A stretch of DNA of 64,000 nucleotides, taken from a candidate division FCPU426 bacterium. Its GTDB lineage: Bacteria > Oederibacteriota > Muellerivitia > Muellerivitales > Muellerivitaceae. The stretch is from the NCBI GenBank assembly GCA_963796105.1, contig CAWCKJ010000004.1:320001-384000 (forward strand), in the 5' to 3' direction. The notes under the pieces were generated by a model. The model did not search any database. It worked only from the letters and a program-made list of their open reading frames with translations, and was not told where the DNA came from. Below, one piece after another: positions 30,072 through 58,663 of the stretch. Both the position numbers and the translations under genes were made by a program. The stretch's first letter is position 1. Each line of letters starts with the position of its first letter.

Positions 30072-30110
30072 GCCTACCTCCCGGAGCCAAGCCTTATGAC
30101 GGGCTTTCCG

Positions 30111-31025
30111 TTACTTGAAGAACTCGATATCATCCACCCAAAAATCAAAATAGGATATTCCGGGTTGATTATTCCGGCCCTCATCCCATTCCAGGAAAAA
30201 TATCTGCTGAAGATTGACCCCGCTCAAAGTGGGCGGGTTCGTGATGACGCCAGGCTGCAATTGGTGAAGATCCGTGAATTTATAGCTGAATTGTTTCCAC
30301 TGTCCGCCAGTACCACTGCTGAAATCCGCCGCGAACGAATCGTCACAAAGCCTCGGCCCGCCCATGCACCCACCTCCCCCAACCGGGCTTGTGGTCTGGT
30401 AAACCGGGACGCTGAAAAAACGGTAAAGAGTGGTGTCGTCGCTTCCCACCTTTAAGTGGTATTTGACCCCATTAAAAAAGCTGGCGTCATAAAACCCACC
30501 GCCTTCCATCTGGGCTTGTAGCTTCACCGAGTCGAAAGAGGAATAATCGCCCGGGTCCAGGAGAGCTCCTGTGACGTGGAAGGCATAATCGCTGGACGAA
30601 CCGCTCGGTCCTGGAGTGTCCAACCAAGGTGCCATGGGGATCGTCAGAATGGATGATCCGCCGAGGGTAACGGTGGTATTTTGCACAGTCGGCGGGTTTG
30701 AGGAGATAGCAATATAAGCCGACCAATCGTTTACCGCTGTAACAGAGCCGCCGGCCGTTTTCAACTTGTAGGTGGGAGGATTACTTGCCTCAAAAAGATC
30801 CGGGTTGACGGTAACCGCATCGGAATTGAAATTTGCCACCGTGCTCCAATCTAAAACTGATTGAGGTGTCGGATATGTTCCGTAAGATGGTACGCTGTTT
30901 TTACAACCCAAAAACCCAGCGATTAATGGAATCAAAACAAATGCCAACCCGACTGCCATCCGGCAGGATAGAACTTTCCGAAGTGGGTTTCGGATTTCCC
31001 CCGTCAGCTTAAAATTGGATTTCAT
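30111..31025 (-). CDS. Lipoprotein with CBM11/CIA30-like domain
   Basis: Lipobox FLGC; VANF...YDASFFNGVKY...GGGC..CDDSF...FWVDDIEFF. Confidence 0.65.
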   Translation of the reverse strand: MKSNFKLTGEIRNPLRKVLSCRMAVGLAFVLIPLIAGFLGCKNSVPSYGTYPTPQSVLDWSTVANFNSDAVTVNPDLFEASNPPTYKLKTAGGSVTAVNDWSAYIAISSNPPTVQNTTVTLGGSSILTIPMAPWLDTPGPSGSSSDYAFHVTGALLDPGDYSSFDSVKLQAQMEGGGFYDASFFNGVKYHLKVGSDDTTLYRFFSVPVYQTTSPVGGGGCMGGPRLCDDSFAADFSSGTGGQWKQFSYKFTDLHQLQPGVITNPPTLSGVNLQQIFFLEWDEGRNNQPGISYFDFWVDDIEFFK

Positions 31026-33408: not shown

Positions 33409-35665
33409 ACGTAAGTCTCCAAATTTGATCCCTGCGGTCAAAAGCAGGGTTGTCGGTCCACTTGTAATTTACGAAAAACCAATCGCACCGGAGGCCGATC
33501 TTGTCGCTGATCGGATAGAGACCACCCAGCGCAATAGTGTCGCGGGTGATGTTCATGGCCTGTAAGGAGTACTGCCCCGAAGGATCCAGGTAGAAGGCGT
33601 AGGACGCCAAGGTAGGGGGGCTTCCTCCTCCCAGGACAAATTCGCTCCCGGTGGACTGGGCCTGCTCGAATGCCACAGACCAAACCATGCGGGAAATAAA
33701 ATGGACGGGAATGTTGAAATCCACGGCTCCAATCATGGTATTCACTGTGAAGGGGCTCCCCCCCATTCCAAGATCCGTGGTTTGGTGTTTGTAATCTAGC
33801 TGCAGGTCGTAGGTCTTCCCTTTCATGTCAATGGCCTTCGCGATGTCCAGAGTAAGGGCTCCCTCATAGCCTCCGAAAACACGGGCGTTTGTCATTCCGT
33901 CTACCGCTGTAACGCCGGTTCCAGCCGGGTTTAACACGTAATTGGGTTGTATTTCCTGGGCATTCAGCAAGTAGGAAGCTTGTGGTTTCAGCCATTTTTT
34001 CTCGCCGAATTCGCCCCAAAAACCGAGCACAATTCCCTTGCGGTTCGGGGACGCATCTCCATATGGAAGGAAATTCTCGGATAGACGGTCATAAGGGGCG
34101 TAATAGGGCCGGTTAACCCCTTGGAACAGGAACCCATTCAGGTAACCCGGCAAGGCGTCATCAACACCGTTCATGGTAGTGCTCCAATAACCTTGCGAAC
34201 CCGCAGCAGGGGTATAGCGGTTGGTCTGGGCCCCGGGAGAATAAAAATTCGGTCCATTGTTGATGTACTTGCCGGTGAAATGGGCCCCTTGGATATCCAA
34301 GGAAGCGTTTCCTAATATGGCCCAATCCTGAAATTCCCTCGCCGTATCATATAAGTCATCGTAATAACGGCTGACAGCTCCTTCGGCGTTTCCAATCAAA
34401 TCAGCCTTGTCGCTGAAGACAAATGAAACTGTGCCGCTAAGACTTCCGATTTGGTATTCCTTCGGAAAGGTGTCTGGGTAATACTGGTTGGGATCGGTGT
34501 TGGAGCCCAGGTAAGGGGTATTGGCTGTATTGACATCGTCAGTAAGGATCAGGCCCGTCCCCTTTACCGTCAAGAAATCATTGAATAAGCCCAAAAAACC
34601 CTGGGCGCCGCCGTAATAACTGCTGAAATTGAAACCGCCGCCATTCATCTGGGTTCCCACCATGGCCTGCAGCCCGGCGCCACTCAGGAACATCTCCTTA
34701 GGGTTGTCAAATGAGGCGGAAGCCTGGAATCCCCTCATATGCCAATCGGGCCCATGGTCGACATAAGCCAATTCTTCCGTATCCTTGCGGGTGCGGTAAA
34801 AGGAAGTGGGGTCGATAAAGGTATAAACAGGAATATTATAGTTCCATAGCGTGAGGGGGGTATAACTCTTGAAAAAGTCACCGGCTGTGAAATTCGCGAA
34901 ATCGTTGTAATCGGTCAGGGAAATCCACCTGAGTTGGTAGGCAGGCTCGAATGGATCCTGGTAATACATACCCATGGAACGCCACAGCCTCATGCGAGCG
35001 TCAAATAATACGGTGGGAATGGGGATACTTTTCAAATCCCACTCCATGAACATGGCGGCGTTATATTCCATGGCCGGATAAATCGCGTTGGTGCCGAAAC
35101 CCCGGTAATCATAGACAAAACCCCTGGAAAATCCGCCCAAATCCGTTCCCGTGCGTTTCAGATATTCTTTTTGGAGAGCGGCAAAAACCTCGTTGCGGAC
35201 CTTGGAATCCACAATTCGTTGCTCCAGCTTGTCCACGTCTACTCCCATAGCGGTTAATTCCTTCCGGAATTCCGACACCAAGTCCGTCATGCTTTTGCTA
35301 GGAAGGGTTGATTGCGGGGTAGCTGTGGAATCCATTCCCGTTAAAGGCGGAGGCGCAGCCAGGGCAGAGGGAAGTTCCGGCGGCAAGGCTGGCTCAGATG
35401 CGGAAGGAGGGGAGGGAAGATCGAGATCAGCTTGAGCCAAATACTTTTGGGAGGCTTGGGCCGTCAATTGAGCGACCTCTAGGTTTGTCAATTGGTCGAT
35501 AGGTTTGCCCGGAGTCGGGGCCAAGCCGGATGACACCAAATCATCCACGCCCAGGTTGATCCAGGAATCCCGGATGTTCGTGGCCAAACGTCCATGATCG
35601 GCCCTTGCCGGAAATGCCGGGCTCAAGAGAATTACCCCTATAAGAATTTGAAGGCTTTTTTTCAT
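33392..35665 (-). CDS. Outer-membrane protein: SLH-like domain, Pro linker, coiled coil, beta-barrel (OmpM-like)
   Basis: Likely start MKKSLQIL at 35665; W...VDDLVSSGL...LTNLEVA; LVSEFRKELTAMGVDVDKLEQRI stalk; ends LTYEAHF. Confidence 0.72.
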   Translation of the reverse strand: MKKSLQILIGVILLSPAFPARADHGRLATNIRDSWINLGVDDLVSSGLAPTPGKPIDQLTNLEVAQLTAQASQKYLAQADLDLPSPPSASEPALPPELPSALAAPPPLTGMDSTATPQSTLPSKSMTDLVSEFRKELTAMGVDVDKLEQRIVDSKVRNEVFAALQKEYLKRTGTDLGGFSRGFVYDYRGFGTNAIYPAMEYNAAMFMEWDLKSIPIPTVLFDARMRLWRSMGMYYQDPFEPAYQLRWISLTDYNDFANFTAGDFFKSYTPLTLWNYNIPVYTFIDPTSFYRTRKDTEELAYVDHGPDWHMRGFQASASFDNPKEMFLSGAGLQAMVGTQMNGGGFNFSSYYGGAQGFLGLFNDFLTVKGTGLILTDDVNTANTPYLGSNTDPNQYYPDTFPKEYQIGSLSGTVSFVFSDKADLIGNAEGAVSRYYDDLYDTAREFQDWAILGNASLDIQGAHFTGKYINNGPNFYSPGAQTNRYTPAAGSQGYWSTTMNGVDDALPGYLNGFLFQGVNRPYYAPYDRLSENFLPYGDASPNRKGIVLGFWGEFGEKKWLKPQASYLLNAQEIQPNYVLNPAGTGVTAVDGMTNARVFGGYEGALTLDIAKAIDMKGKTYDLQLDYKHQTTDLGMGGSPFTVNTMIGAVDFNIPVHFISRMVWSVAFEQAQSTGSEFVLGGGSPPTLASYAFYLDPSGQYSLQAMNITRDTIALGGLYPISDKIGLRCDWFFVNYKWTDNPAFDRRDQIWRLTYEAHF

Positions 35666-35697
35666 TTCTAGTTTATCCAAAAATCCTTTTCCGAAGA

Positions 35698-38600
35698 TTA
35701 GAACAAAAACTTAACTTTGCAAAAATACTGGTTTCCGGAATAATTGTTCGCTGGAATGTAATTGTCATGGAATTCAAGGTACTTATAACGGAATTCCAAC
35801 TTGGCCCCACCCCAAGGGATGTCATAGGCAAGCCCTAATCCATAATCGTTGGTTCGATAATCCACCTGGGGGTAGGTATATTGTGATTTCCAGGTTTCAA
35901 CTCCGATGTCACCCATCAAATCCACGTTCTTGACCACGTTAATCATGATGGAACCATCGTAGACCAACTGTTCAAAGAGGTTGGAAAAACTGGTGGAAAG
36001 GGTGTAAGGAGCCAAATTGTTGGACAAGGGCGAGTTGTTGTTAACGGGGAGATTTGTAACGGAACTGGAAGCGACACCTGAAACCTGATTATCGGTGATG
36101 AAAAAGAACCCATCCACGGGAGAGGTCAAACCAAGCCATTTATCGATTTTGAGTTTGGCGGTCAAGGTAATGTAGTTGTAGGTTTTGAGGTCGTCAATAT
36201 TGGCATACATATTGTTTCCATTTGCATATTTTGCGGGATCTTGACCCGAGGTGGCAGGAGACAAACTGTATGTTCCGCCGTTGTTATAAATGGGCAAAAT
36301 GAGCGGAATCCTCTCACTGGTCATTCTAAATTGGTAGCGTACATCATCGTTGACAATGTCCGCATCGTTTCTCATGGCTTCGATGTTGTTGATGTAGGTC
36401 TGACGCAGGGGATTCACGTTGGGCGCATAGTTTCCCCAAAGGTCCAACCCCCATAAGCCCTCGTCGTCCGGGTAGTAAAAACTAAGCAATTGGGTGGGTT
36501 CGACCTCGTAATAACCTTCCTGGCCCTGTTCGGCCACATATTCCTTCTTTTGGGACACGTCAAAGTTGATGATAAAGGTATCCAGGAAACTAGGCCAACT
36601 CTTCATCCAGGTCTGTTCCCTGCCGTCCCATCCCAAGTTGACCCGCCAACCGTATCGGTCGGTCTGAAGGTTGTCCACCTCCCCGATGGCCCCATAAACG
36701 TCCTGGAAATCGCTGGGATTGAAATAAAGGCCGTGGTGGAAGAAATTAAATCCGCTCATGGTAGCCTTGCTCATGAAGTCGGCGTAATTCTCACTGAGGC
36801 CGAAGTAATAAAGGGTCAGGGGATAAAAAGCCATGGAGGCCTGACCCGCGGGCGCCTCAACTGCGTTGGAATCATTTTGGAGTTGGCCTGATTGTACATA
36901 GGCGGGGCCGGGATAGACGCTTCCCGTATAAAAATGCGAGAACCCGCCCTCGAAATCAAACAAAACCGGGGCAAGGTTCAAATGGATGTCGGCTGAGTAA
37001 TCTTTCATGTCCAGCTGGGGCATATTGGGCAGGTTGCTGACCCCAAAATTGTCATTTACCCATTCCGCGGAAATCGAGGCCCTTAAAAGACTGCCGAACA
37101 AAGGTTGGTCAATCTTGGCCCCTTCCTCCCAACGAAGGCTTTGGCTGGTTGTTTCGCCCATACGTCCCACCAGGAACCACATCCGACCGCCCGGAGCCAG
37201 CCATGGGACAGTTCTCCCTACCGCGTAAATCCCGTCAAAAACCCGGTCGCTGGTGGATTGAACATTGCCTGCCGTGGGGGAATAACTGGGCACGTAGCTG
37301 ATGTTGCTCATGAAGTCATCCCAGTTCTTCGCGTTTTTATCATCATTGAAGCTCTTGATGTTCCAGGGGTTCTCGAACCGCTTGAGGGAATTGTTGGCAT
37401 AGCCGCGACTAAAATCGCCGTAGGTGGTGTCCGGTTGGTAGGCTTCCACAGCGAAGGTGGTGTCCCATTTACCTAAGTCCCCGTAAAGATCCAAAGTACA
37501 GCTGGGATTACCGATATAAAGGGAAACAGGTCCTGTGCCGTAGACACCCCATAAGTCATAGTTGGCGGATGCGTTGTCATAGGGCAAGATTCCGCCTACT
37601 CCGAGGGAAAGGGCTCCCTTCCCCCCCAGGTCCGAGTACATCCCGCACCAGATTTCCTCCAAAGCCTTTGAGACGCTCTCGGTGGCGATACCAGAAACGT
37701 TTAAGTTTTCAAACCGAGTGTTGATATTCGTGTTGAAATTCGGGATGCCCGCCGACCTATCCGCCTTTTTCCAAATAGCGTCCACTTCGTCCTGAACCGT
37801 TTTGAGGTTATCTAACTCGTCTTCCTGGGCTTTAATCCGGGGATCATCCAAGCTTAGCCGCGAGCGAAGAAAAACAGTTTCCAAATGAAGTTGTTTCAAA
37901 AGGTCCTCTATTTCCTTCCTTAAGGCGCCAGTAGCTTCCGGGAGGTTTACTGCGGGTGTGGGATTCGGGGTGACTATAGGCGAGGCGACAGGAGTAATGA
38001 CCGGAGAAGGAGCCGATGGGGTCGCGAGAGTTGGCGCAGGGGTGTTCGCGGGCAAAGGCAAAGAAGGTTCTGGTAAAGGCGGAGCGGTCAGGGGCGTATT
38101 TTCAGGCAAAGGAAGCGCTGGCGCAGGAAGTTCCGGAGCCGGCTGAACTGGAGCAGGGGTGTTCGCAGGCAACGGCAAAGAAGATTCTGGTAAAGGTGGG
38201 GCGGCAAGCGGTGCCTCCGGCATTGGCAAAGAAGGCTCAGGTAAAGGCGGGGCTGCCAATGGCGTGTTTTCCGGAAGTGGAAGCGCGGACGGGGGAAGTT
38301 CCGGAACCGATTGAACAGGCGCGGGCGTAACCGCAGGCAACGGCAGGGAAGACTCCGGTAAAGCCGGCGCGGCCAGAGGAGCATTTTCCGGCAAAGGCGG
38401 AGCGGCCAGGGGCGTATTCACCGATAGAGGAAGAGCCGGCGCTGGTTGTGTTGAAGCAGGCAATTCCGGAGCGGAATTGAGGGGCGGCAATTGGACAGGA
38501 GTTTCCAAAGGGGATGGCACGGGAGTTAACGGGGTCGGACTCGGCAACGCTAATTCAGGAGCTTCAATCTTAGCGGCGGCCTTCTCAGTGTAAAAAGCCA

Positions 38601-38814
38601 ACTCCAACCGGGTGACTATTTTCCCCTGATCCAAAACCGCTTGATCAGCGGGATCTAAAAGGCCTAAATCCGCGAGCTTCTTCACCCTTTGGTAAAGGAG
38701 TTGGTCGGGGCCGACATTTTCCATAGGATCAGCGTTAAGCAGGCTGACTCCGCCGTTCCAAGGAAAAAAGGTTAGTAAGGAAACAATAAAATATAATTTG
38801 AGGCGAAATTTCAA
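35698..38814 (-). CDS. Outer-membrane protein: SLH-like domain, long Pro-rich repeat, coiled coil, beta-barrel
   Basis: YQRVKKLADLGLL...VTRLELA; ~200-aa Pro-rich region; LRKEIEDLLKQL coil; ends KVKFLF. Confidence 0.68.
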   Translation of the reverse strand: MKFRLKLYFIVSLLTFFPWNGGVSLLNADPMENVGPDQLLYQRVKKLADLGLLDPADQAVLDQGKIVTRLELAFYTEKAAAKIEAPELALPSPTPLTPVPSPLETPVQLPPLNSAPELPASTQPAPALPLSVNTPLAAPPLPENAPLAAPALPESSLPLPAVTPAPVQSVPELPPSALPLPENTPLAAPPLPEPSLPMPEAPLAAPPLPESSLPLPANTPAPVQPAPELPAPALPLPENTPLTAPPLPEPSLPLPANTPAPTLATPSAPSPVITPVASPIVTPNPTPAVNLPEATGALRKEIEDLLKQLHLETVFLRSRLSLDDPRIKAQEDELDNLKTVQDEVDAIWKKADRSAGIPNFNTNINTRFENLNVSGIATESVSKALEEIWCGMYSDLGGKGALSLGVGGILPYDNASANYDLWGVYGTGPVSLYIGNPSCTLDLYGDLGKWDTTFAVEAYQPDTTYGDFSRGYANNSLKRFENPWNIKSFNDDKNAKNWDDFMSNISYVPSYSPTAGNVQSTSDRVFDGIYAVGRTVPWLAPGGRMWFLVGRMGETTSQSLRWEEGAKIDQPLFGSLLRASISAEWVNDNFGVSNLPNMPQLDMKDYSADIHLNLAPVLFDFEGGFSHFYTGSVYPGPAYVQSGQLQNDSNAVEAPAGQASMAFYPLTLYYFGLSENYADFMSKATMSGFNFFHHGLYFNPSDFQDVYGAIGEVDNLQTDRYGWRVNLGWDGREQTWMKSWPSFLDTFIINFDVSQKKEYVAEQGQEGYYEVEPTQLLSFYYPDDEGLWGLDLWGNYAPNVNPLRQTYINNIEAMRNDADIVNDDVRYQFRMTSERIPLILPIYNNGGTYSLSPATSGQDPAKYANGNNMYANIDDLKTYNYITLTAKLKIDKWLGLTSPVDGFFFITDNQVSGVASSSVTNLPVNNNSPLSNNLAPYTLSTSFSNLFEQLVYDGSIMINVVKNVDLMGDIGVETWKSQYTYPQVDYRTNDYGLGLAYDIPWGGAKLEFRYKYLEFHDNYIPANNYSGNQYFCKVKFLF
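37940..38550 (-). repeat. Intragenic Pro-rich repeats
   Basis: Recurrent PLAAPPLPE(S/P)SLPLP and PAPVQxxPELP units in the translation. Confidence 0.85.
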
Positions 38815-38822
38815 AAATCGGC

Positions 38823-38882
38823 TCCTGAAATCATTCTAACTTTTAAAACCTTTCCTGAAATCATTCTAACTTTTAAAACCTT
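38823..38882. repeat. Perfect 30-bp tandem duplication
   Basis: TCCTGAAATCATTCTAACTTTTAAAACCTT twice. Confidence 0.95.
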
Positions 38883-38895
38883 ATAGAAGGCTCTA

Positions 38896-39669
38896 TCAAA
38901 AAAACTCAACTTCATCGATCCAATAATCGATGGCATAGGTCCCTGCGGCATTATCAGCGGAATGAGCCCACTTCAAGTAAATAAATTCTTTTAAATGCTC
39001 AGTTAATTCGGGCGGAGTAACAGGCGAACCCCAACCCTGAAGCCGAGTCAAATCGGAGAAATTCAAGACATACAAGGTCCAATCGGCGATAGGTTTTAAA
39101 TTAGCGCCGTAATGGTTGTAACACGCATTTACGCAAATGCCGCCATCAGAGGAAGGAAGTGTGGGAGCCGTGGCGATATTAAACCGGCGTTTAAGAGCTT
39201 GGTCGGCTGTCGGACATTTGTAATAAAACTGGATTCCAGAGAAATTACTGGCATCGTACAGGTCTTTCCCTTTGAAATTAAATTGCAGATCAAATTCGGG
39301 ATAAGATGCGTCCCCCTTGTCCGTAAGGCTTCCATATACATGGGCCGCCATCTTGGTGCCGTTAGCGCCTCCCTTAACCACGAAATCACTATTGACCGCG
39401 TTTCCGGCCCAGGTCAAGGTGGACCATTCACCCGCTCCATCAAGATACAGTTTGGGGTTCCCGCTCTTGGATCCATTATCAAAATTGGAAATAACGGAAG
39501 CTTCCTTTGGAACGTTCACCTTAACACTGTTTTTTTCAGGGTTCGCCAAGCCGCGGGCCAAACTAGCGTTCTTTGAGCCTTCATTCACGAATACAGCCCC
39601 ACATCCAGCCAAAAGAAAAAGCCCCAGAACCCCAAATAAAGACAAAAGCTTGGACGAGGCCATAAACAT
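38896..39669 (-). CDS. Lipoprotein with CBM11/CIA30-like domain
   Basis: Lipobox LAGC; ISNFD...YDASNFSGIQF...GGIC..CYNHY...YWIDEVEFF. Confidence 0.68.
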   Translation of the reverse strand: MFMASSKLLSLFGVLGLFLLAGCGAVFVNEGSKNASLARGLANPEKNSVKVNVPKEASVISNFDNGSKSGNPKLYLDGAGEWSTLTWAGNAVNSDFVVKGGANGTKMAAHVYGSLTDKGDASYPEFDLQFNFKGKDLYDASNFSGIQFYYKCPTADQALKRRFNIATAPTLPSSDGGICVNACYNHYGANLKPIADWTLYVLNFSDLTRLQGWGSPVTPPELTEHLKEFIYLKWAHSADNAAGTYAIDYWIDEVEFF

Positions 39670-40034
39670 CCTTCACGAAAAGATGGGTAAGGAAAACGCC
39701 GGTATTTTACTAAAAAGCCCTGAAAAGCTGGAATCTTTTTTTAATAAAATTTAAAAATCAGGTGTTTTGGGAATTTATTGTTTAAAACCCTTTTCATTGG
39801 GTTTATTACCATTAAACAAGCCCAGGGTTGAATTTTACTTTTTTATTTATATTTAACGACGGGAAACAAAGCTTCAAACTCGCAAATATAGCTTCAATTC
39901 AACCAAAGTAGCGGTTCTTTAAACTCCAAATTTGAAATAAGAATGGGAGGGCATACCCTGTCCATAATTCATGAACTCTTTCAGAGTTATAAGATCTAGA
40001 GCCATGATCACTTGAATTTTCCAGTTCATTCCTT

Positions 40035-43000
40035 TTATGGCGTATCCAATTTCTTCACGGCGGTCCCTAATGGCAACCCCTTGACGTAAACAAAATCAAA
40101 AACCCGCAGGGGATCTCCCTGCTTTTCGACCATGACCGCGGCCATGTAGCGGTTGTCCCTCTCCGGATGGGGCTCGCGCGGCATATTCAAGAAAAGGCTT
40201 TTCACTTTTACCATATTCCCCGCGGGAAGCTCAAACGGCCCCAGGGTCGCCAGCTCATCCAGGTAATTTTTCGAGGTGTCTATCTGGTGGAGAACCACCC
40301 CTTTCAAGTCCTCGGGCGAATGGTTGCGGATTTCCACGCTTAACGGAACCGGCACCCCAACGGAAGCTTCCTTGGGGGCGGTGACAGTCACGTCAATGGG
40401 TAATAGCCCTTCGGCTTGTTGTAACGTCGTAAAGGCTTTTCCTCCCGCAATGGTCCATTCCATGGTGGTGTAAGGACCCCGGATTCCCCAAACCAACCGG
40501 TAAAGGTCGTGCCAAAACATTCCTAGATTGGCGTTCTCCGGAAACCAGTTCTGGAAAGTCTCGTTTTCGCGGTTATAAAGTTCCAGCGGGCCGGGAGGTT
40601 CAAGGGTTTTCTGGACCCAATTGAAGTCCACCATCTCTCCCATGGCGTACATGCCGTTTTCCCTGGATAAATAAACAGGCCAATGCCGTTTCATGGCCTC
40701 AATATGTTCTCTCGTCCCCTCGTAGAGCATGATATGGTTAAAGGCCACCCCAGCGTCAATGAACATGGCTGGATCTTGGCCGTGTTGATGTCCCATTTCC
40801 CATCCCAAGGTGAACGTGAACACCGGCTTGGTAACCTTTGCCTCATCCAAGATGCTTTTCAGGGCCAGCGACACCTTGTGGGCCCTCCACCACTCGAACA
40901 AAGCCACCACCTGGGGATTTTCCTTTAATTCCACGGTCCTGGCCAGCCAGTGAATCCGATCTTGCTTTGACATAGACCAAAAATCCATGGGGCCAGGGAC
41001 GTTCAAATCCCTGACGAACTCATCCACCATCTCATACCCGGCAAAACCTGTCCTGACATAATCCAAACCTATGATATCAACCAGGGGTTCCTGATCCATT
41101 TTCCTTAGGAAATCGATGATATCCTTGCGGCGTTTTTTATCATCCAGGGAGATGAACCTAGTCTGGATGACCTCGTCGCTGTCCGGATCGTATCCCAGCG
41201 AGAAGTCGTAAGGCGCTTGCTTCCAAGCGTCGCCTTCCACTTTAAAGGTGGTCATGTACCCAGCGAACTGCAGGCCTTTCGCGTGGGCGGCCCTCGCGTA
41301 ACGGCGGCCCGTTTCCATTTCGAGGCGGTTGTAAGGAAAATCCGCCTGCACGAAATGATCCCAAATGGAGGTTTGTCCCATCAAGTCGCAGTATAAATTT
41401 GCCCCCATGAATTTCGCCCAATCAATGGCGTTGGAGGTGCTGGAGGATCCGTTTCCATCCAAAGGCGGCACGGCGCCGTTTACCAATTGCTTCCCCCCCT
41501 CCATCGTAAGCGCGGCATAGCCGGGATAAAGCCCGTGGGGTTTCAAGTGCGCGATGGTAAACGCGGATTCAAAAGTCCGGGGAACCTTCCATTGCGGGGA
41601 AGTAATGATCACCTCGGCGATGTAAGTTCCCGCCTTGGGGTTGTAGGGAATCGGCCAATTGCCGAGAAGCTTCTTCCCCTCCTGATCCTTCCTTAAATAC
41701 AACTTGGACCTGCCATCCACCATGTTAACCGGCTCCCCGTCGCGGAACACCTCCACGGATGCGTGGATATCGGAGAAATAAGTCGAATCCTTTGGATTAA
41801 CCCTCACCTCAAAAGGCACCATTTCGTAGCGAAAAAAAGTGCGAGTGGGCATAACGGCGATGGCGTCTGGAATCATCTGGGAAACAGAGGGTGCTTGGAG
41901 GACGTTCTTGGCCCTGGAGGGGGAAAGGGTGGCCTTGGCCCAGTAGGCGCCAACACTTAATAAAAGAACAATTAAAACAGCCCAGCCGATCAGGGATCGC
42001 TCAACAAAAGCCTGGTAAATCCCTTTCCAGGATTCCCAACGCGGTGCCGGCCGCAGCAAGGGCAAAAACTCGGGGGAAGGCCATTCCAAATTCGGCTTCT
42101 GGGTGTTTTCAGGAACATCAACAATATCTTTCTCATGGCTCTCCTCATGGCCGATCCCAGCCCTGGAAAGTGGCGTTGAAACCCTCCCCGAAGCCAATGG
42201 GCTGGGGATCTCATCGGCCATTTCCGGATTGAGTTGAATGGCATTTTCCTCCTCCCATTCTTCCTGGAATGGGGTTTCAACCCATTCCGTTAGGACCCGT
42301 TTCGTTTCTGAATAGGCTTCTTCCAAATCCTTTGTTTTTTTCTCTGCCGGGAAAGAATGGGCCTTATCTATTGCTGGAGACTTCCTTGAAAAATAACTCT
42401 TGCGCCACTGGTTCATATTCCAAATCAAACCAACGATCGATCGAAACAGGAACGGGAATGATGAGAAAAACCATCGAACTGCTATCAGGGAATAACGGAA
42501 GAGGAAACTAAGACCCGTCAGGATTTTTTTAACCGCCCAGGGAATAAACGAAAAAAACGGCCAAATCCAATCCTTCCCTTTTCCCGAAAGCTTTTCCAGG
42601 ATCAAACCCACACGCGGCAAATATTTTCCAGCCTCCTTAATCACACTTTTAATATTGAGAACGGTGGGCTCGGTCTTTGGCAAGCGGAAAGGCTCCAGGT
42701 TTTTCGGGGATAAAGTGCTGATATCCCCAAGCGGGACTGATTTTTCCCGGGTGAGCCTCACCACCGTTTCCACGTGGTAGGTCTGGGGGAACATGTCCAG
42801 CGGCTGCGCCCAGTCCGCCCTGTAGCCGTGTTTGGTCAAAAGGGAAAGGTCCCGGGCCAGGGTGGAAGGGTCGCAGGAAACATAGACCAATCTTTCGGGA
42901 TGGAAAGCCGTCAAATGCGCCAGAAACTCCGGCAGGACTCCCTTGCGGGGAGGATCCATGATCACAGCGTCCAGTTGCGTCATTCCCTTATCCCGCAAGC

Positions 43001-44177
43001 CCGTCAGGACCCGGCCGACGTCGCCTTCCAGGAAATCCAGGTTGTCCCGCTGATTCAATTGCGCGTTGAATTTCGCGTCCTCGACCGCGGGAGCTGATTC
43101 TTCGATGCCGACCACGTAGTCCGCTTTGTTGGATACAGCCAGGGCTAGGGTCCCAATCCCGCAATAGAGGTCCAGGAGCATCTCCCATTTCTTCTTATGC
43201 TCCGGGTCGCCGAGCGCCTCCCTGACCACGGTATGGAGGATATCCGCCTGGGGTGTGTTCACCTGGAGGAAGGACATCAGGGACACCCTCAGTCTGAGAT
43301 CGTCGATCACCTCGAAACAGTGGTCCCTTCCGGCCAAGAGGCGCGTCGTGGTCCCGAAAACGGAATTGGTCCGGGAGGGATTGATGTTTTGAAGCACGCC
43401 CACCAATCCCGGGACTTCCTCCAAAAGCTCCGCCGAGATCCTGGGGAGGATTCGGTCCAAGGTTTCTAAGATCAGGGCCGGCTTTTGAAGGCGCTCCTCG
43501 GGGGTTTCCGAGCGGGTGATGAAGGACAACAGCATTTCCCCTGTTTTTACCCCGTGCCGGACGGCCAAGTGCCTCAGGAAACCCGTGTGTTTCTTCTCCT
43601 GGTACGGCGTCAAACCTGAGCGGTCGATTTTCCTTAGGACTTTTTGGATCAAGTCGTTGACGGGATCCCCCTGGATGGGGCAGGTCTGGTAAGGAACGAG
43701 GTGATGGGAACGGGGTTCGTAAATTCCCGAGACAAAATGTCCTTCCCGCATCGAGAGAACCGGAAGGGCCTTGTTGCGGTAAGCGTAGGGGCTGGGCGAG
43801 GGTAGGCAGGGCTGAACCAGGACGTTTGAAAGGTGGCCGATTCTTTGGAAGGCGTCCACAACAAATTGGCGCTTGGCTTGGAGCTGACGGGAATATTGCA
43901 GGTGCTGCCATTGGCATCCCCCGCACTCCTCGAATACGGAACAGGCTGGAACCACGCGGTCCGGTGATCTTTTCAGGAAGTTAAGAATCTCCCCCGTGGC
44001 GTAATGATCCTTTACTTGGTTGATCTTTACGGCCACCCTCTCGCCGGGAAGGCCGCCCGGGACAAATACGGCAAAATCACGGTAACGCCCTACTGAATCC
44101 CCCCCGAAGGCGAGGGAGTGGATGTCGATCTCGATGATGTCGCCGTGGTGTACGGGTTTGACGAATTTGGTTTCCAT
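40035..44177 (-). CDS. rlmD: 23S rRNA m5U methyltransferase (RlmD/TrmA family) fused through a TM helix to an extracytoplasmic GH-like domain
   Basis: TRAM domain, C-x5-CGGC 4Fe-4S motif, LDLYCGIG, DPPRKG, YVSCDPSTLARD, DMFPQTYHVE. Then ~900 extra aa including a TM helix (LIGWAVLIVLLLSVGAYW) and IIGLDYVR. Confidence 0.85.
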   Translation of the reverse strand: METKFVKPVHHGDIIEIDIHSLAFGGDSVGRYRDFAVFVPGGLPGERVAVKINQVKDHYATGEILNFLKRSPDRVVPACSVFEECGGCQWQHLQYSRQLQAKRQFVVDAFQRIGHLSNVLVQPCLPSPSPYAYRNKALPVLSMREGHFVSGIYEPRSHHLVPYQTCPIQGDPVNDLIQKVLRKIDRSGLTPYQEKKHTGFLRHLAVRHGVKTGEMLLSFITRSETPEERLQKPALILETLDRILPRISAELLEEVPGLVGVLQNINPSRTNSVFGTTTRLLAGRDHCFEVIDDLRLRVSLMSFLQVNTPQADILHTVVREALGDPEHKKKWEMLLDLYCGIGTLALAVSNKADYVVGIEESAPAVEDAKFNAQLNQRDNLDFLEGDVGRVLTGLRDKGMTQLDAVIMDPPRKGVLPEFLAHLTAFHPERLVYVSCDPSTLARDLSLLTKHGYRADWAQPLDMFPQTYHVETVVRLTREKSVPLGDISTLSPKNLEPFRLPKTEPTVLNIKSVIKEAGKYLPRVGLILEKLSGKGKDWIWPFFSFIPWAVKKILTGLSFLFRYSLIAVRWFFSSFPFLFRSIVGLIWNMNQWRKSYFSRKSPAIDKAHSFPAEKKTKDLEEAYSETKRVLTEWVETPFQEEWEEENAIQLNPEMADEIPSPLASGRVSTPLSRAGIGHEESHEKDIVDVPENTQKPNLEWPSPEFLPLLRPAPRWESWKGIYQAFVERSLIGWAVLIVLLLSVGAYWAKATLSPSRAKNVLQAPSVSQMIPDAIAVMPTRTFFRYEMVPFEVRVNPKDSTYFSDIHASVEVFRDGEPVNMVDGRSKLYLRKDQEGKKLLGNWPIPYNPKAGTYIAEVIITSPQWKVPRTFESAFTIAHLKPHGLYPGYAALTMEGGKQLVNGAVPPLDGNGSSSTSNAIDWAKFMGANLYCDLMGQTSIWDHFVQADFPYNRLEMETGRRYARAAHAKGLQFAGYMTTFKVEGDAWKQAPYDFSLGYDPDSDEVIQTRFISLDDKKRRKDIIDFLRKMDQEPLVDIIGLDYVRTGFAGYEMVDEFVRDLNVPGPMDFWSMSKQDRIHWLARTVELKENPQVVALFEWWRAHKVSLALKSILDEAKVTKPVFTFTLGWEMGHQHGQDPAMFIDAGVAFNHIMLYEGTREHIEAMKRHWPVYLSRENGMYAMGEMVDFNWVQKTLEPPGPLELYNRENETFQNWFPENANLGMFWHDLYRLVWGIRGPYTTMEWTIAGGKAFTTLQQAEGLLPIDVTVTAPKEASVGVPVPLSVEIRNHSPEDLKGVVLHQIDTSKNYLDELATLGPFELPAGNMVKVKSLFLNMPREPHPERDNRYMAAVMVEKQGDPLRVFDFVYVKGLPLGTAVKKLDTP

Positions 44178-44573
44178 TCAGTTATTTAGGTTACCCTTTC
44201 AAGTTCCAGGATCAATCCATTCATTCGATAATTAAACGTCAAATCAATTTGGGCTGTTTTACTGATGCGCAACTAAGCTAACTGCCTTATCGAATAAATT
44301 ATTTTAACTGTTATTTCAACCAGGGCAACCTGGGTTTTGGGGTTAAAGCTCTTCCCCATTGGTATCAAAACTCATCCTCAAGCTACAAACTGCATACTTT
44401 AAGGCCTTATATACAACTTCTTGTGGCGGCAAACCTTGCGGTAGGAAAACCGAGCAAAAGAAGGGGCTGGTATCTTACCGATTTCCATAAAAGTGTTTGG
44501 CTTTGGGAAAAAGACAAGATGAAATTTTGGATACCGTGGTAAAGGATGAAACTCGCTGAACGCGGGTTTCAGG

Positions 44574-45266
44574 TCAATGCTTGACGGCGGGGGCGGCCTT
44601 GGGCGCGGTGGCGTCGCCCTCCAACCGCAAATAGTCGAGATAAACCACGACGGGCTCCGTGGCTCCCGTAAGATCCACCCAGAACTTGATAGACCGGATG
44701 TTGCTTAAATCCAGGCGGGCTTGGATCATCTTGTCCAAGGGAACATCAATGTTGGTGACTTTCTTGGGCGTCAAGGGCCCAGTGATATCGGAAAAAACAA
44801 ACCCGTGGGAATCAGCTACTTCCATATGATAAATCACAGGATGATCCTGGGGATTGAAGACATCCAGTTTCAAATCGGCGTATTCCTGCCACTCATAAAC
44901 CTTCAATTGGGTAACGGAATTGGTGTCGAGGGACATTTGGGGGCGCCATTCAACGCCGGGAGTGGGGGTGGGGAAAAACTGGCTTTGCAGGAGAAAGGTG
45001 GCTTTCGCGCAAAGCTTGCCGTGGGTCTGGTTTTCCTTGGCGGGTTCTATTTTGACGTAGCCCCCGGTCATCCAATCGAAATCGTCATTGGGATACTCGA
45101 AATCCGTGATCACCATGCTTTTGGTCAGGTTTTTGTGATGTTTGAAAATACCCCCCAAACCCAAGCCGGTCACAAGGGCATATCCCAAAGCCAGTAAAAA
45201 AACGATTCCCAGAATCCAAAGAAATGCGCGCATTTGCTTTCCTATTTTTCCAAGAAATTCAATCAA
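44574..45266 (-). CDS. Membrane-anchored protein with putative carbohydrate-binding (galactose-binding-like) domain
   Basis: N-terminal TM; ITDFE...WQEYADLKLDVFNP...LDLSNIRSIKF...YLDYLRL pattern. Confidence 0.55.
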   Translation of the reverse strand: MIEFLGKIGKQMRAFLWILGIVFLLALGYALVTGLGLGGIFKHHKNLTKSMVITDFEYPNDDFDWMTGGYVKIEPAKENQTHGKLCAKATFLLQSQFFPTPTPGVEWRPQMSLDTNSVTQLKVYEWQEYADLKLDVFNPQDHPVIYHMEVADSHGFVFSDITGPLTPKKVTNIDVPLDKMIQARLDLSNIRSIKFWVDLTGATEPVVVYLDYLRLEGDATAPKAAPAVKH

Positions 45267-45463
45267 CCAAGTGAGGCGGAGGCATTGTATCAGCCCTTTG
45301 GGTGTCCTGCAACTTTCCTGGTTATACTTTTCCTTATATATAGCCGATTAGAATTGAACGGAATTTGGGCCGAGGGTTTGTCGTTTGGCTTTTTAAGCAT
45401 TCCTAAGCCAGGCGCCTCCAGGATTTTATCATCCTTGGATTCCACCCTGATCATGGCCTCCTG

Positions 45464-46492
45464 CTATTTCTTGGATTTGGATGACTTCCGGACAACCAAT
45501 TGGCCGGGAACCAATATTTGCCGGGGCTTCCATTGCTCCGGCTCCTTGACCTTCTCCAGCAGGATTCGAGTGGCTTCCACGCTGATGGTCCTGTAATCCT
45601 GCCGGATGGTCGTCAGGGAATAAGGAGCTTTCGAGACCTCCGGAATGTCGTCGAAACCAACCAAGTCGATATCCTTTCCCACTTTCAATTTGGCTTTTTC
45701 CAGGGCCTTGATCGCTCCCATCGCCATGAGGTCATTGGAGGCGAAAACCGCCGTAGGTTTGTCCCGAAGCGCCAGGAGTTTTTTCATGGCTTCCTCTCCG
45801 GATTCCTCGAGGAAATTTCCGCCCACGATATATTCCGGGGGGATTTTGAGCCCATGTTTTTCCATAGCGGACTGGAAGCCTGCCAGCCGGTCGGCGGCGT
45901 TGCGCGAATTGTCCACCTGCCCGGTGATAATGGCGATCTTCCTGTGTTTTAATCCCGCAAAGTGGTCCACCACCTGGCCCACCGCTTGGATGTTATCGGT
46001 ATCCACGAAATCCAAACTTGGGTCCGAGGTCCTGTAGCCCACCAGCACGATCGGCACCCGGTTGTTCAAGATCAGGCCCAGGTCCTTTTCCTCCAGGTAC
46101 GGCGAAACCATGAGGATGCCGTCCACGACGTTGTTGAAAACCCGCTTGTAAACTTCCTGCGGGTCGAAAACCCCCGCGATGGTATTGATCAATAGGCCGA
46201 ATTGGTTTTCCTGGACAACCTGGTTGACGCCGTTCAAAAGTTCCAAGTACCAGGCGCTTTCCATGTTGAACTGGTAACCCGGCCAGGAGAAAAAAACCTC
46301 GATCAGGTTGGTCTGTTTGATCACCAGTCCGCGCGCGATGGGGTTCGGCTTGAAATGTAGCTCCTCGATGGCTTGAAGGACTTTTTTCCGCGTCTCTTCC
46401 AGGACATTCGGGTTCTTGTTCAGGACCCGCGAAACAGTCGAGATGGAAACTCCCGCCTTTTGGGCGACATCATAAATGGTGTTGACAGCCAT
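45464..46492 (-). CDS. LacI-family transcriptional regulator
   Basis: TIYDVAQKAGVSISTVSRVLN HTH; VFASNDLMA, VGFDD, LTTIRQ. Confidence 0.97.
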   Translation of the reverse strand: MAVNTIYDVAQKAGVSISTVSRVLNKNPNVLEETRKKVLQAIEELHFKPNPIARGLVIKQTNLIEVFFSWPGYQFNMESAWYLELLNGVNQVVQENQFGLLINTIAGVFDPQEVYKRVFNNVVDGILMVSPYLEEKDLGLILNNRVPIVLVGYRTSDPSLDFVDTDNIQAVGQVVDHFAGLKHRKIAIITGQVDNSRNAADRLAGFQSAMEKHGLKIPPEYIVGGNFLEESGEEAMKKLLALRDKPTAVFASNDLMAMGAIKALEKAKLKVGKDIDLVGFDDIPEVSKAPYSLTTIRQDYRTISVEATRILLEKVKEPEQWKPRQILVPGQLVVRKSSKSKK

Positions 46493-46527
46493 AGGTCTCC
46501 TTGTTTCTTAAGGGAAAATATTTCCGC

Positions 46528-46540
46528 GAAAACGGTTTTC
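46528..46540. promoter_or_regulatory. Probable LacI-family operator (autoregulation)
   Basis: Palindrome GAAAAC-G-GTTTTC ~36 bp upstream of the lacI-family start, downstream of a minus-strand TATAAT at ~46652-46657. Confidence 0.55.
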
Positions 46541-46982
46541 TTCCCCGTTTCATGCTTTCATGCGCTTTCATCAGCTTACCCAATGATCTCCTGGAGTTTT
46601 TTAAAGATGGATAAAAAAAGGATTATCTCGGGCCTGATCAAAGACAACCTCATTATACCCCCGCTCGAATGGAATTTCATTTTCCTTTTGAGTCAACCAG
46701 ATCAAAAAGCCAGAACGGCGGGAAATCTTGTCAAGGGACGGTCATTCGCACCCCATACCAGCCTTCTATTCACCTGATAGCGAGGCTGGCATAGTACCGA
46801 TTTCTATATCTGTCTTATTGCAAATCGGTACAGCGTAGTGCAGGGCTTGGGGTCACTTTTGATGGCCCGAATATCATTTCAGGCCCAAGCCCGGAATTTC
46901 ATTTGCCGGTTAAACGAAGTGCAATTGGAATCGATGTAAGCAGCGAAAGGAATGTAAGCCGGACTCTTTGTTTCCAATCCGT

Positions 46983-49553
46983 TTAACGAACGACGAGCAC
47001 TTTGAATTTCGTGTTCTTGGTCGATTGGTCGGCGTAGTGGACTTTGATTCGAACAATATAAAGCCCGGACGCGGCGTGGGAAGGCATCCAGGCGTGACGG
47101 TTTGTGTTGGCGAACTCAAGATGGGCCGTTAATTCCCCCGCGACCGTGTAAATCCACCATTCACTGCTGAGGGGCTGTTTGTCGAAAAACAGCTGGATAG
47201 CCTGTCCATTCGCGGAAACGGTCGGGCCCAGAAGCAATCCATGGCTCGATGGGTTGTATAAAGGCGTGGGAGTAATCGTGGGGGTGTTCGTGATCGTGGG
47301 GGGGAGAGTAATGGTTGGAGTGAGTGTGATAGTCGGCGTGTTCGTGATCGTAAAGGTCGGGGTGGGCGATCCCCGGTAATTCATGACCAATCCCCAATCC
47401 CAAGCGGTGGAAGGCACGGTGACGTTCATGGCACCGCCCGAGGCGGTCGCGGTGCCGGTTGAGGAAAGGGCGCCGGTTTGGGTGTTGTACCAATGGGTGT
47501 TCCAGGTGCCGTTCGTGCCGACTCCGATAAATTGAACCGTTCCAGTGAGGGCCGGGGGGGCGCCGTTGGCAAGGACATACGCGTAATTGTAGTTGCGGTT
47601 GGTCACCCAGGCCGCGATGGTTTGGGCCGACTGGAGGGCGTAGGTTTTCAACCCAGCCACACAGCCCCCAAAGACATAAGTGGTGTCCATCCAATCCGTC
47701 CCCGTGTCGCTCACGAAAAGGGTCGCTGGCCCGGCTGGCACCGGCACCGAATAGGTGGTGTTGGAGACGGCCTGGCTGTTCAAGACCTGGGTCCCATTGA
47801 GGGTGATGTTGAGAATCGGCACCCCGGGCGTGGGGCAGATGTTGCCCACCTGCACCCGGAAATTACCCGCCGCCGGGTAATTACAGATGAAAGTCGGGGG
47901 GTTGACCAAGGTGGGGTGGTAGGAGCCGTAAAGCTCGGAGGACAGACTCCCCACGCCGGGGGACAAGGTGCCGTTGGAATTTACGGTGAAGCGGTTGGCG
48001 GCGGCGACGGTTCCCCACCCCAGGGACCCCGTGACGGTGAGGTCGGCGTAGGAAGAAGCCGTGACCAGGGGTTGGTTGAAGGTGAACCCCGAATGGACGA
48101 AATCCAGCAAGGAAGCGAAGGTGGAAAGCCCCTTGTAGTTGTAATAAAGGTTTTGCGGGTCGATGTAGTCGTCCCACCACCACATGGCCCCGCTCCCGTC
48201 AGACTCGCCTAGCAGGTCTCCCCACATGACGTTATGAAACTCGATTCCGCCGGGGTCCATGGACACAGGGGCGGAGGAGGAACTGACCCCGAACTCCCCC
48301 ACGTGCACGGGTTTGGAGGGGTAACTGCCCCGGTAGTTCTCGACGGTCCCGTGGATGCCGTCTTCCATGGCGGGGGAGGAATTATAAAAGTGTATCTGGG
48401 TGTAATCGATCAAGGAGGAGTTCCAAACATTCGGGTCGAACTGGCTTTCGGCGAAACTGGTGGTGACCAGGTGCAGGCTGTCGAGCGACTTGACGTAAGA
48501 GGCCATGTTTTCAAGCCAGGCGGCCACATCGGCTTGCACCGTGACGCTGGAGGTGTAATTGTCAGTCCACTCGATCTCATTGGCCAATTCCCAACACAGG
48601 GAAGGGTCATAGCCCCAGCGGGCCACGCAATAGCGCAGGTGCTGTTTCCAATAACTGATGGCGGTGGGGTTCGTGAAAAAATCCGTGGTGGTGGAACAGG
48701 GCCCCCCGTTGGTGCTGTTGTAGGGGCTTTGGGCCCAATTGGGATTGACGGTGGAGGAGACTGACCCGTGGTTCAAGAGGCACAGTTCCACCACGATGCC
48801 GTTGGTCCGGGCCTTTTCCAGGTCATAATCCAGCCGCCAGGCGTCGTACTGATAATAGGAGTAATTCCCCAGGCCCGGGGTGGAGTTTGGGTTCGTCCAC
48901 TCGATCTCGTGGTACCAGGGGCACATCCAATAACGGGCGAAATTTGCCCCCTGGGAGGACATCTTGGGAATCCACTGGTCGTAATCGAAGGTTCCCCCTC
49001 CGTAGTTGTCTTCATAGTCCCCCCAGCCCACGTCCTCCCCGATGGGAATGAATTGGGTGTTGTCGTCGTATTGGAAATAGCGTGGATCGGATGAAATCTT
49101 CGGAAAACCCTTGAGCGTGGAAGCGTTGCAATTGAAAGTTTGAGGGCCGTAGGTCCCGGTTCCCGACCCCGAATCCACCGCAGTCAGGTTATAGGTCCAG
49201 GTGCCGGTAGCGTTGGGGGAAAACCGTATCTTCCAGACGGGCGAACCGCTGGAGGTTAAAACCTCGGGCGGCCCCGAGCGGGTATAGGCCTGGTAATAAA
49301 ACCCATAGGCGGTGATGGCCTGAGAACCATTGGTGAAGACACCGTAAACGTTGATCTGGGAGGGGTTGTAAGGGTTGCCGTAGGTTGTCCCGGAAAGGGT
49401 AAAGGTCAGCTCAAATTTATCCAGGCGTTGGATGCTAGTGGAACTGGGGGTGACGCCGGTGAATACAGGCGAGGCCAGCGCTGGGTAAGTGAGGAAAGCC
49501 AGGTATGCAGTTAAGAGAGTCCGCGAAACAGAACGCACTAAAATCAAATTCAA
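46983..49553 (-). CDS. Secreted glycoside hydrolase (DUF5060-like N-terminus, GH5-like catalytic domain), Thr/Pro linker, T9SS-like C-terminal domain
   Basis: Signal peptide; FELTF...NPYNP...WKIRFSP; ARWGY, WELANE, VGEFG, WWWD; TPTIT repeats; IYTVAGE...ASGLYIVRI...KVLVVR. Confidence 0.75.
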   Translation of the reverse strand: MNLILVRSVSRTLLTAYLAFLTYPALASPVFTGVTPSSTSIQRLDKFELTFTLSGTTYGNPYNPSQINVYGVFTNGSQAITAYGFYYQAYTRSGPPEVLTSSGSPVWKIRFSPNATGTWTYNLTAVDSGSGTGTYGPQTFNCNASTLKGFPKISSDPRYFQYDDNTQFIPIGEDVGWGDYEDNYGGGTFDYDQWIPKMSSQGANFARYWMCPWYHEIEWTNPNSTPGLGNYSYYQYDAWRLDYDLEKARTNGIVVELCLLNHGSVSSTVNPNWAQSPYNSTNGGPCSTTTDFFTNPTAISYWKQHLRYCVARWGYDPSLCWELANEIEWTDNYTSSVTVQADVAAWLENMASYVKSLDSLHLVTTSFAESQFDPNVWNSSLIDYTQIHFYNSSPAMEDGIHGTVENYRGSYPSKPVHVGEFGVSSSSAPVSMDPGGIEFHNVMWGDLLGESDGSGAMWWWDDYIDPQNLYYNYKGLSTFASLLDFVHSGFTFNQPLVTASSYADLTVTGSLGWGTVAAANRFTVNSNGTLSPGVGSLSSELYGSYHPTLVNPPTFICNYPAAGNFRVQVGNICPTPGVPILNITLNGTQVLNSQAVSNTTYSVPVPAGPATLFVSDTGTDWMDTTYVFGGCVAGLKTYALQSAQTIAAWVTNRNYNYAYVLANGAPPALTGTVQFIGVGTNGTWNTHWYNTQTGALSSTGTATASGGAMNVTVPSTAWDWGLVMNYRGSPTPTFTITNTPTITLTPTITLPPTITNTPTITPTPLYNPSSHGLLLGPTVSANGQAIQLFFDKQPLSSEWWIYTVAGELTAHLEFANTNRHAWMPSHAASGLYIVRIKVHYADQSTKNTKFKVLVVR

Positions 49554-58424: not shown

Positions 58425-58663
58425 GGAACAGCCTCCATTTTGGGGCGGGAAATAAAGCACGATAGGGACCTGCGACTTAAAACTTACCACTTTTTAAGCA
58501 AAAATGATAAATAACAAATATAGTTCTTGTCCGAATTTGCGGATGATTGTTCTTGAGGCCGGTACGTCCAGATCTTCTAAAAAATTATTATCCGACCAAA
58601 TGGAAAAGCAAATGATAAAAGCGGTATGGAATGGCTAAAGGACATAAAGTGATGAATTATCAC

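Follow-up and report, generated by a model that had tools for sequence, protein, structure and literature searches.

The RNA methyltransferases RlmD (RumA) of Escherichia coli (PDB 1UWV/2BH2), RlmCD of Streptococcus pneumoniae (PDB 5XJ1) and YefA of Bacillus subtilis are built of the same TRAM, central and S-adenosylmethionine (SAM)-methyltransferase domains. RlmD/RumA and RlmCD are soluble stand-alone proteins of 433-454 aa, and methyltransferases acting on rRNA are held to be free in the cytoplasm. A precursor that yields two proteins is known from Bradyrhizobium, where the single gene of the cytochrome b-c1 precursor FbcH gives rise, via an internal signal sequence, to two subunits of one complex. 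Growth of E. coli and B. subtilis is little affected when RlmD-type enzymes are lost (PMC3241648). Among exported TIM-barrel proteins, PgaB's C-terminal domain (GH153) and Cwp19 (GHL10) carry Asp-Tyr, Tyr, Gly and an aromatic residue after strands 4, 6, 7 and 8, respectively; in Cwp19 these are D196-Y197, Y297, G328 and F367 (PMC5765458), while D474 is the probable catalytic acid of PgaB (PMC5933820). The anti-sigma factors RsiV and RsiP combine a cytoplasmic head, a membrane segment and an outer domain with an internal signal-peptidase site (PMC6066255, PMC8844934), which in RsiV is hidden by amphipathic helices that follow the membrane segment (PMC6066255). Here we analyse a window, a stretch of 64,000 nucleotides from a candidate division FCPU426 bacterium (contig CAWCKJ010000004.1), in which one open reading frame (ORF) joins RlmD to a glycosidase-like tail, so that the order's sole RlmD would head the precursor of an exported protein. 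No description of an RlmD-tail fusion was found in the openly accessible literature searched, and a term search of PMC7031533 gave 0 occurrences of RlmD.

One reading frame for RlmD and a glycosidase-like tail

The fusion gene lies on the minus strand and is laid out as follows; dN/dS is the ratio of nonsynonymous to synonymous substitution rates and E the expectation value.

40035..44177, minus strand: whole RlmD-tail fusion ORF (P0001), 1380 aa, single uninterrupted frame (ORF translation)
42747..44177, minus strand: RlmD, aa 1-477, with TRAM, Fe-S cysteines 79/85/88/166 and active site F303, Q305, D408, R411, C435, E470
43983..44150, minus strand: TRAM RNA-binding domain, aa 10-65 (PF01938, E 1.2e-11)
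43434-43514, minus strand: RlmD insert region, aa ~222-248 (alignment)
42393..42653, minus strand: linker region of basic amphipathic character, aa ~509-595 (hydrophobic moment 0.55; hydropathy over 19 residues at best 1.42)
42063..42392, minus strand: acidic, Pro-rich, fast-evolving part of the linker, aa ~596-705 (35% identity to a same-genus relative, dN/dS about 0.4)
41931..41999, minus strand: internal segment resembling a signal peptide, aa 727-749 (basic n-region and hydrophobic core, then A747-K-A749)
41553..41864, minus strand: first beta-sandwich, immunoglobulin (Ig)-like, aa 772-875 (predicted structure)
40413..41516, minus strand: TIM barrel, GH153/GHL10-like, aa 888-1255 (predicted structure, invariant residues)
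41061..41063, minus strand: D1039, aspartate predicted to be catalytic, where barrel strand 4 ends (strand position of Cwp19 D196 / PgaB D474)
40074..40397, minus strand: second beta-sandwich, Ig-like, aa 1261-1368 (predicted structure)

An initial annotation made from the letters of the window had proposed an uninterrupted ORF beginning with an intact RlmD, and this is what we find. The region of aa ~10-477 scores 401 bits against TIGR00479 (curated cut-off 183.55), and the four cysteines, DLYCGIG, DPPR and YVSC are all present. Among solved structures the best match is RlmCD of S. pneumoniae (E 1.7e-66), whose active-site residues F281, Q283, D381, R384, C408 and E443 (PMC6235398) align with F303, Q305, D408, R411, C435 and E470 of the fusion; C435 corresponds to the catalytic Cys, E470 to the general base, and F303, Q305 and D408 to the residues that bind uracil. 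The catalytic residues and the four Fe-S cysteines are kept in 53/53 full-length fused sequences, a count that leaves out 7 partial rows of the 60 homologues described below. Of the residues F145, Q162 and N249 of RlmCD, an enzyme dual for U747 and U1939, two are kept (I152, Q169 and N271 in the fusion). Between the window's genome and a same-genus relative dN/dS of RlmD is 0.06, and the fused copy is the only RlmD-type gene in the window's genome. We infer that the fused RlmD is an active enzyme. Unlike its soluble stand-alone relatives, it is continued by a membrane segment and a 900-aa tail, and it carries an insert of ~15 aa near aa 228-243, which is found in all aligned fused proteins of the window's order and in neither the unfused RlmDs nor those of family f9. 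GC content lies between 0.48 and 0.60 along the ORF, with no compositional step hinting at a chimera.

To survey the spread of the fusion, the tail (aa 760-1380) served as query against 99 genomes of the phylum. The tail was matched in 77 genomes, fused to RlmD in 33 and stand-alone in 44. Thirty-one of the matches belong to the window's order (30 genomes of family f1, including the window's own, and one of family f2); 30 are fused, 0 are split, and one, consisting of two contig-end fragments (G071), was counted as uninformative. RlmD and tail matches stand in one open frame in 28 genomes of the order, and two more (G005, G012) have sequence of both in a single frame, though contig ends cut both. 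The 30 informative genomes, fused without exception, cover at least 16 genera, and a stop after ETVVRLTR, named beforehand in the initial annotation as its refutation, is seen in 0 of the 30. One genome of the order, 80% complete (G018), yielded neither the RlmD half nor the tail. A protein search returned 60 homologues of 759-1509 aa, with RlmD Pfam domains in 56; three of the other four begin within the RlmD end or the linker, and the fourth, P0036, begins just ahead of the membrane segment on a 9-kb contig and is unexplained. Given these counts of genomes and homologues, the chance that an assembly error or a strain-specific loss of a stop codon created the fusion is negligible.

Outside the order, the stand-alone tail of the 44 genomes of other families is a frame of 594-754 aa, the two genomes of family f9 again have the tail fused to RlmD, and with the same query the tail was not found in 18/18 genomes of families f4, f5, f6, f11 and f12. 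The fusion is real, ancient and inherited, not an assembly accident, and it spans the window's order and not the whole phylum as sampled. The names of the homologues point to the Firestonebacteria/FCPU426/Goldbacteria group; the tail family is represented also among records of Elusimicrobiota, Zixiibacteriota, Coatesbacteria, Edwardsbacteria and Spirochaetes. Two tails, P0059 and G067:C214:12372-13883, are broken by an apparent frameshift, either an assembly error or a pseudogene. Where rlmD of other families lies in a long open frame, the extra length is an upstream frame or a low-complexity tail and not an RlmD-tail fusion. The unfused RlmD of family f11 (L077:4969-6912, plus strand; L078:4579-6498, minus strand) has a basic low-complexity C-terminal tail of ~200 aa.

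A predicted exported barrel and its internal signal-peptide-like segment

No match in Pfam or NCBIfam was found for aa 480-1380 of the fusion. An AlphaFold2 model of the tail, computed on an alignment of 134 rows and beginning at aa 760, has a mean predicted local distance difference test score (pLDDT) of 95 and a predicted template-modelling score (pTM) of 0.93, and shows a beta-sandwich, a TIM barrel and a second beta-sandwich, in support of the Ig, TIM barrel, Ig order proposed initially. In VIA-align the barrel finds the PgaB C-terminal domain first (Z 23.4, root-mean-square deviation 3.9, 310 aligned) and Cwp19 next (Z 21.4, root-mean-square deviation 4.3, 304 aligned), at 8-12% identity. 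Foldseek with the whole tail model places GH66 dextranases first (template-modelling score about 0.3), and an Atlas structure search gave two unnamed clusters and then GHL10 at 0.87, which we take as a lead only. The early assignment to a GHL10-like exported barrel is supported; the family lies below the Pfam threshold of GHL10 (PF02638): P0001 has no match, and one of eight homologues reaches 17.6 bits (E 0.002) against the required 27.9. The best match of a tail profile in a sequence search of solved structures was a GH29 fragment with E 0.033.

Twenty-three residues of the tail are invariant, many of them at or just past strand ends; those of the barrel include E893, D1039-Y1040-x-R1042, W1126, H1132-G-Q, M1150-x-Y1152, G1180, D1224 and R1227. 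Matched by strand position, the GHL10 pattern is found in D1039-Y1040, Y1152 and G1180, invariant in 134 rows, and in W1222-H1223 after strand 8. The IIGLDYVR motif noticed in the initial annotation corresponds to aa 1035-1042. Because its place at the strand end matches those of Cwp19 D196 and PgaB D474, D1039 is likely catalytic, the equivalence being one of position only. The PXXP motif and the conserved Arg of GHL10 (Cwp19 R132) are not evident in the tail consensus, where the equivalent positions are not fixed. Unlike PgaB and Cwp19, the tail is flanked by two beta-sandwiches and is without cell-wall-binding domains; nor is the PgaB-type N-terminal deacetylase domain in its chain. For the three tail domains dN/dS is 0.03-0.04 (same pair of genomes as above). 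The tail is, on its modelled fold, a separate new glycoside-hydrolase-like family, predicted to be exported, whose members are annotated as hypothetical or, misleadingly, as RlmD. An envelope housekeeping role suits it better than a food-scavenging one, because PgaB and Cwp19 cut envelope polymers containing N-acetylglucosamine (GlcNAc) and the stand-alone gene mostly adjoins lepA.

RlmD and tail are joined by a linker that has a basic amphipathic part followed by an acidic Pro-rich one. Its length up to the membrane segment ranges over ~50-370 aa among fused proteins. Between two same-genus genomes it is 30-48% identical, their domains being 88% identical, and its dN/dS is about 0.4 versus 0.03-0.06 for the domains. 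The basic amphipathic part, predicted to lie on the membrane face, is absent from basal short-linker relatives.

The membrane helix that the initial annotation placed at ~41935-42000 is there as a hydrophobic segment (aa ~732-746, window ~41940-41990), but with a conserved A-x-A at its end it looks like a signal peptide. The consensus of 59 fused sequences reads basic residues, 11-14 hydrophobic residues, Gly-Gly and then A747-x-A749, with A747 in 52/59 and A749 in 58/59; the residue at -2 is variable and often Lys (35/59). A scoring script found Ala at -1 in 57/58 fused sequences and A-x-A in 88%. The same script was run on MreC (27 rows) and PBP2 (24 rows) of the same family. These two proteins are uncleaved membrane anchors, and in any column scanned they had at most 25% Ala at -1 and at most 4% A-x-A. 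Three barrel-like genes nearby, whose N-terminal signals served as positive controls, gave 100%, 100% and 40% Ala at -1. Hence the segment has what signal peptidase I recognises, a basic n-region, a hydrophobic core and small residues at -3/-1, though it is not N-terminal and starts at aa 727. An N-terminal hydrophobic segment is present in 110/119 stand-alone homologues, and by a crude rule 64 of the 110 are of the A-x-A type, 37 small-x-small, 7 lipobox-like and 2 neither. Since A-x-A exceeds the anchor controls and the stand-alone homologues carry such a segment at their N-terminus, the likeliest reading of the internal segment is a former signal peptide of the exported gene that selection still maintains. 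A lipoprotein-like start (Ser/Gly-Cys) and another gene order are seen in the stand-alone tails L063-L070, L072, L074 and L075 (Zixiibacteriota-titled, Coatesbacteria-titled and further records).

How would one chain serve two compartments? We consider it somewhat more probable than not that the gene encodes a single precursor which signal peptidase I cuts after Ala749, freeing a periplasmic glycosidase and leaving RlmD on the membrane. RlmD would fold in the cytoplasm and methylate U1939 of 23S rRNA, while the internal segment would engage Sec as a type II signal. LepB would then cut after A749, releasing a tail of 631 residues, a size like that of the stand-alone homologues, and RlmD would stay on the inner face of the membrane. 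The freed enzyme may act via D1039 on a GlcNAc-containing envelope polymer, either peptidoglycan or an exopolysaccharide, and from then on RlmD and tail would be independent, without signalling. If true, this would be a rare bacterial polyprotein with products for two compartments; unlike those of FbcH, the products would be unrelated enzymes.

Family f9 and the competing readings

The two fusions of family f9, a probable sister family of the window's order, depart from the others in their RlmD half.

L032:1885-5370, plus strand: f9 fusion with a predicted dead but conserved RlmD
L036:120-3527, minus strand: f9 fusion with a predicted dead but conserved RlmD

The proteins, of about 1149 and 1135 aa (genomes G038 and G032), have an amphipathic helix at their start (moment 0.48 and 0.61). 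Their RlmD shares 24-25% identity with that of the window and keeps TRAM and all four Fe-S cysteines; the equivalents of Q305, D408, C435 and E470 are replaced in both proteins and the SAM-binding loop is lost. When modelled it still takes the RlmD fold (pLDDT 81.5, template-modelling score 0.83 to RlmCD), in a model biased by an input alignment that consists mostly of active RlmDs. Between the two genera the f9 RlmD is 64-74% identical, like the tail beta-sandwiches, and since synonymous sites are near saturation this identity marks purifying selection. RlmD abuts the membrane segment without a linker, and Met-Met-Lys-Arg stands directly ahead of the hydrophobic core in both genes. No second RlmD was found in the f9 genomes (83% and 89% complete). 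Further pseudo-RlmDs of this type were sought, and among 7981 candidates the same 2 alone were recovered, with 0 in two metagenome scans. The f9 fused RlmD thus appears to be a pseudoenzyme that has been conserved, a hint of some non-catalytic role: its deletion would leave a ready Met-Met-Lys-Arg signal peptide, and still it is retained. We offer tentatively, as an idea more likely wrong than right, that the fusion is kept since the RlmD fold serves, as a second and non-catalytic function, as an RNA-binding tether: it would hold 23S rRNA or pre-50S particles to the inner membrane, would be produced in equal number with an envelope glycosidase, and would in this way couple the assembly of ribosomes to the growth of the envelope. 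In family f9 the tether job would be stripped bare, because catalytic residues and SAM loop are lost, TRAM, Fe-S cysteines and fold are kept under purifying selection, the membrane segment adjoins directly and an N-terminal amphipathic helix has been gained. As such, the f9 pseudo-RlmD is a natural test of a non-catalytic role for the RlmD fold.

Several observations weigh against a cleaved precursor and its glycosidase product. The rows of the segment are kin, and T750, L751 and P753 are conserved too (about 50/59), so that A-x-A could be an inherited remnant; one of the three positive-control signals reached just the 40% Ala given above; the f9 site, A-F-G-G, is less canonical; and about a third of the stand-alone homologues resemble uncleaved N-terminal anchors (Elusimicrobiota and Spirochaete rows). 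Many f1 linkers have a second hydrophobic amphipathic stretch (hydropathy over 19 residues up to 2.6), which might span the membrane and alter the topology; it is missing in the short-linker relatives P0052-P0058. As to the barrel, those of GH35, GH14, GH29 and GH42 follow close behind PgaB and Cwp19 (Z 18-20). Alternatively, the segment may be a type II anchor that stays uncleaved, with RlmD inside, the glycosidase-like module outside and one helix between them that passes no signal. The data agree with the initial suggestion that the fusion may serve simply to anchor RlmD. An uncleaved anchor fits the one clear hydrophobic segment, which has its basic residues toward RlmD, the anchored or lipoprotein-type appearance of some stand-alone homologues, and the weaker cleavage site of the linkerless f9 proteins. 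The A-x-A conservation of the segment, however, is far above that of same-family anchors, and the hydrophobic core is short and broken by Gly-Gly, with Lys at -2; we regard an uncleaved anchor as rather unlikely.

The idea that glycan sensing is coupled to RNA methylation found no support: the linker is variable, a signal-peptidase site is present, and the barrel-gene cluster that accompanies the fusion is absent beside the stand-alone tail homologues examined. In its fuller form, a ligand on the outer module would control RlmD across the membrane, or would gate cleavage by signal peptidase and then at site 2 as in RsiV, where signal peptidase is a regulated site-1 protease (PMC6066255). That precedent, the persistence of the fusion across the order and as a pseudoenzyme in f9, and the LacI-type and barrel-like genes that flank it in the window's order speak in its favour. 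A conformational relay is ruled against by the linker, which is long (50-370 aa) and little conserved. Moreover, RsiV and RsiP have a short anti-sigma domain as head and a site masked until ligand binds, whereas the head here is RlmD and no masking element is seen in the model, which begins at aa 760; the site is at its usual place, aa 760-771 being modelled as coil at the low confidence of pLDDT about 57, and the barrel keeps the full conserved pocket common to 44 unfused genomes. A sensor of either kind is in our view improbable. Two translation products from one frame, with an internal start yielding the exported enzyme and the upstream start the long form, would accord with the Met-Met-Lys-Arg of both f9 genes and with P0036, which starts at just such a place on its 9-kb contig. 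Yet the f9 Met codons have no Shine-Dalgarno sequence before them, start codons with Shine-Dalgarno support do not recur before the segment across the 27 genes read, and a scan of 75 codons of the window's gene shows no ATG. The genome does use such signals, at 642/1197 first ATGs versus 495/3479 internal ATGs, so an internal start is unlikely in the window's order, and we hold the two-product reading as a whole to be highly improbable.

Origin of the fusion and gene surroundings

Unfused rlmD lies near gatB in 15/20 loci, and the stand-alone tail gene lies directly before lepA in 19/24 loci. Simple read-through of adjacent genes was rejected as the origin, because in no unfused locus examined do rlmD and the tail gene lie side by side. 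In 5 of 5 fused-lineage relatives, f9 included, rlmD is missing from the 1.5 kb behind gatB, and in the window's genome there is none there or elsewhere apart from the fusion. Probably rlmD left its place behind gatB and landed in frame before the signal peptide of the exported gene, once, before the order and f9 split. A quick tree of RpoC joins f9 to the window's order (Shimodaira-Hasegawa-like approximate likelihood ratio test 94). Against this, the case for a single origin is a weak one: the RpoC branches are long, and the tail tree leaves f9 unplaced, with one clade not rejected (approximately unbiased test, p 0.38). Two origins are conceivable, because f9 has neither the linker nor the ~15-aa RlmD insert; one relocation is simpler.

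In the window's order a LacI-type gene lies upstream of the fusion, and downstream it is followed by an ORF of lipoprotein-like type, by three that are barrel-like and lastly by lepA-lepB, of which the last two are placed in the window as follows.

27186-29006, minus strand: lepA
26429-27163, minus strand: lepB (signal peptidase I)

The initial annotation had a porin operon directly after the fusion; the next gene is lipoprotein-like, the barrel-like ORFs come after it, and the name porin goes back only to a weak NF033921 match (E 0.002) and language-model look-alikes. That next gene, an ORF of 257 aa without a Pfam or PDB match, as are its paralogues, follows after 365 bp, and in one relative (G025) a LacI gene lies on the opposite strand within the gap after the fusion gene, so that co-transcription of the fusion with downstream genes is doubtful. 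Promoter and terminator scans were at or below the level of shuffled sequence, and no Rfam family was found in window 38000-47000.

Several ORFs around the fusion lie, like it, on the minus strand of the window. The region 31009-38814 holds three tandem exported ORFs of 760-1040 aa, without Pfam matches and syntenic across the order, the first with a Pro-rich repeat; in the one tested, language-model features resemble porins with a surface-layer homology (SLH) domain or other outer-membrane barrels. Four exported or anchored ORFs at 29148-31025, 38896-39669 and 44574-45266 end in a D-x-W/L-x-D-x-x-x-F-like motif, three of them being mutually similar, and gave no Pfam or PDB match; our guess is that they are carbohydrate-binding modules. 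At 46983-49553 lies an exported protein of 856 aa with DUF5060 and a Thr-Pro linker, and at 53712-58490 a Gly-rich, autotransporter-like ORF of 1592 aa.

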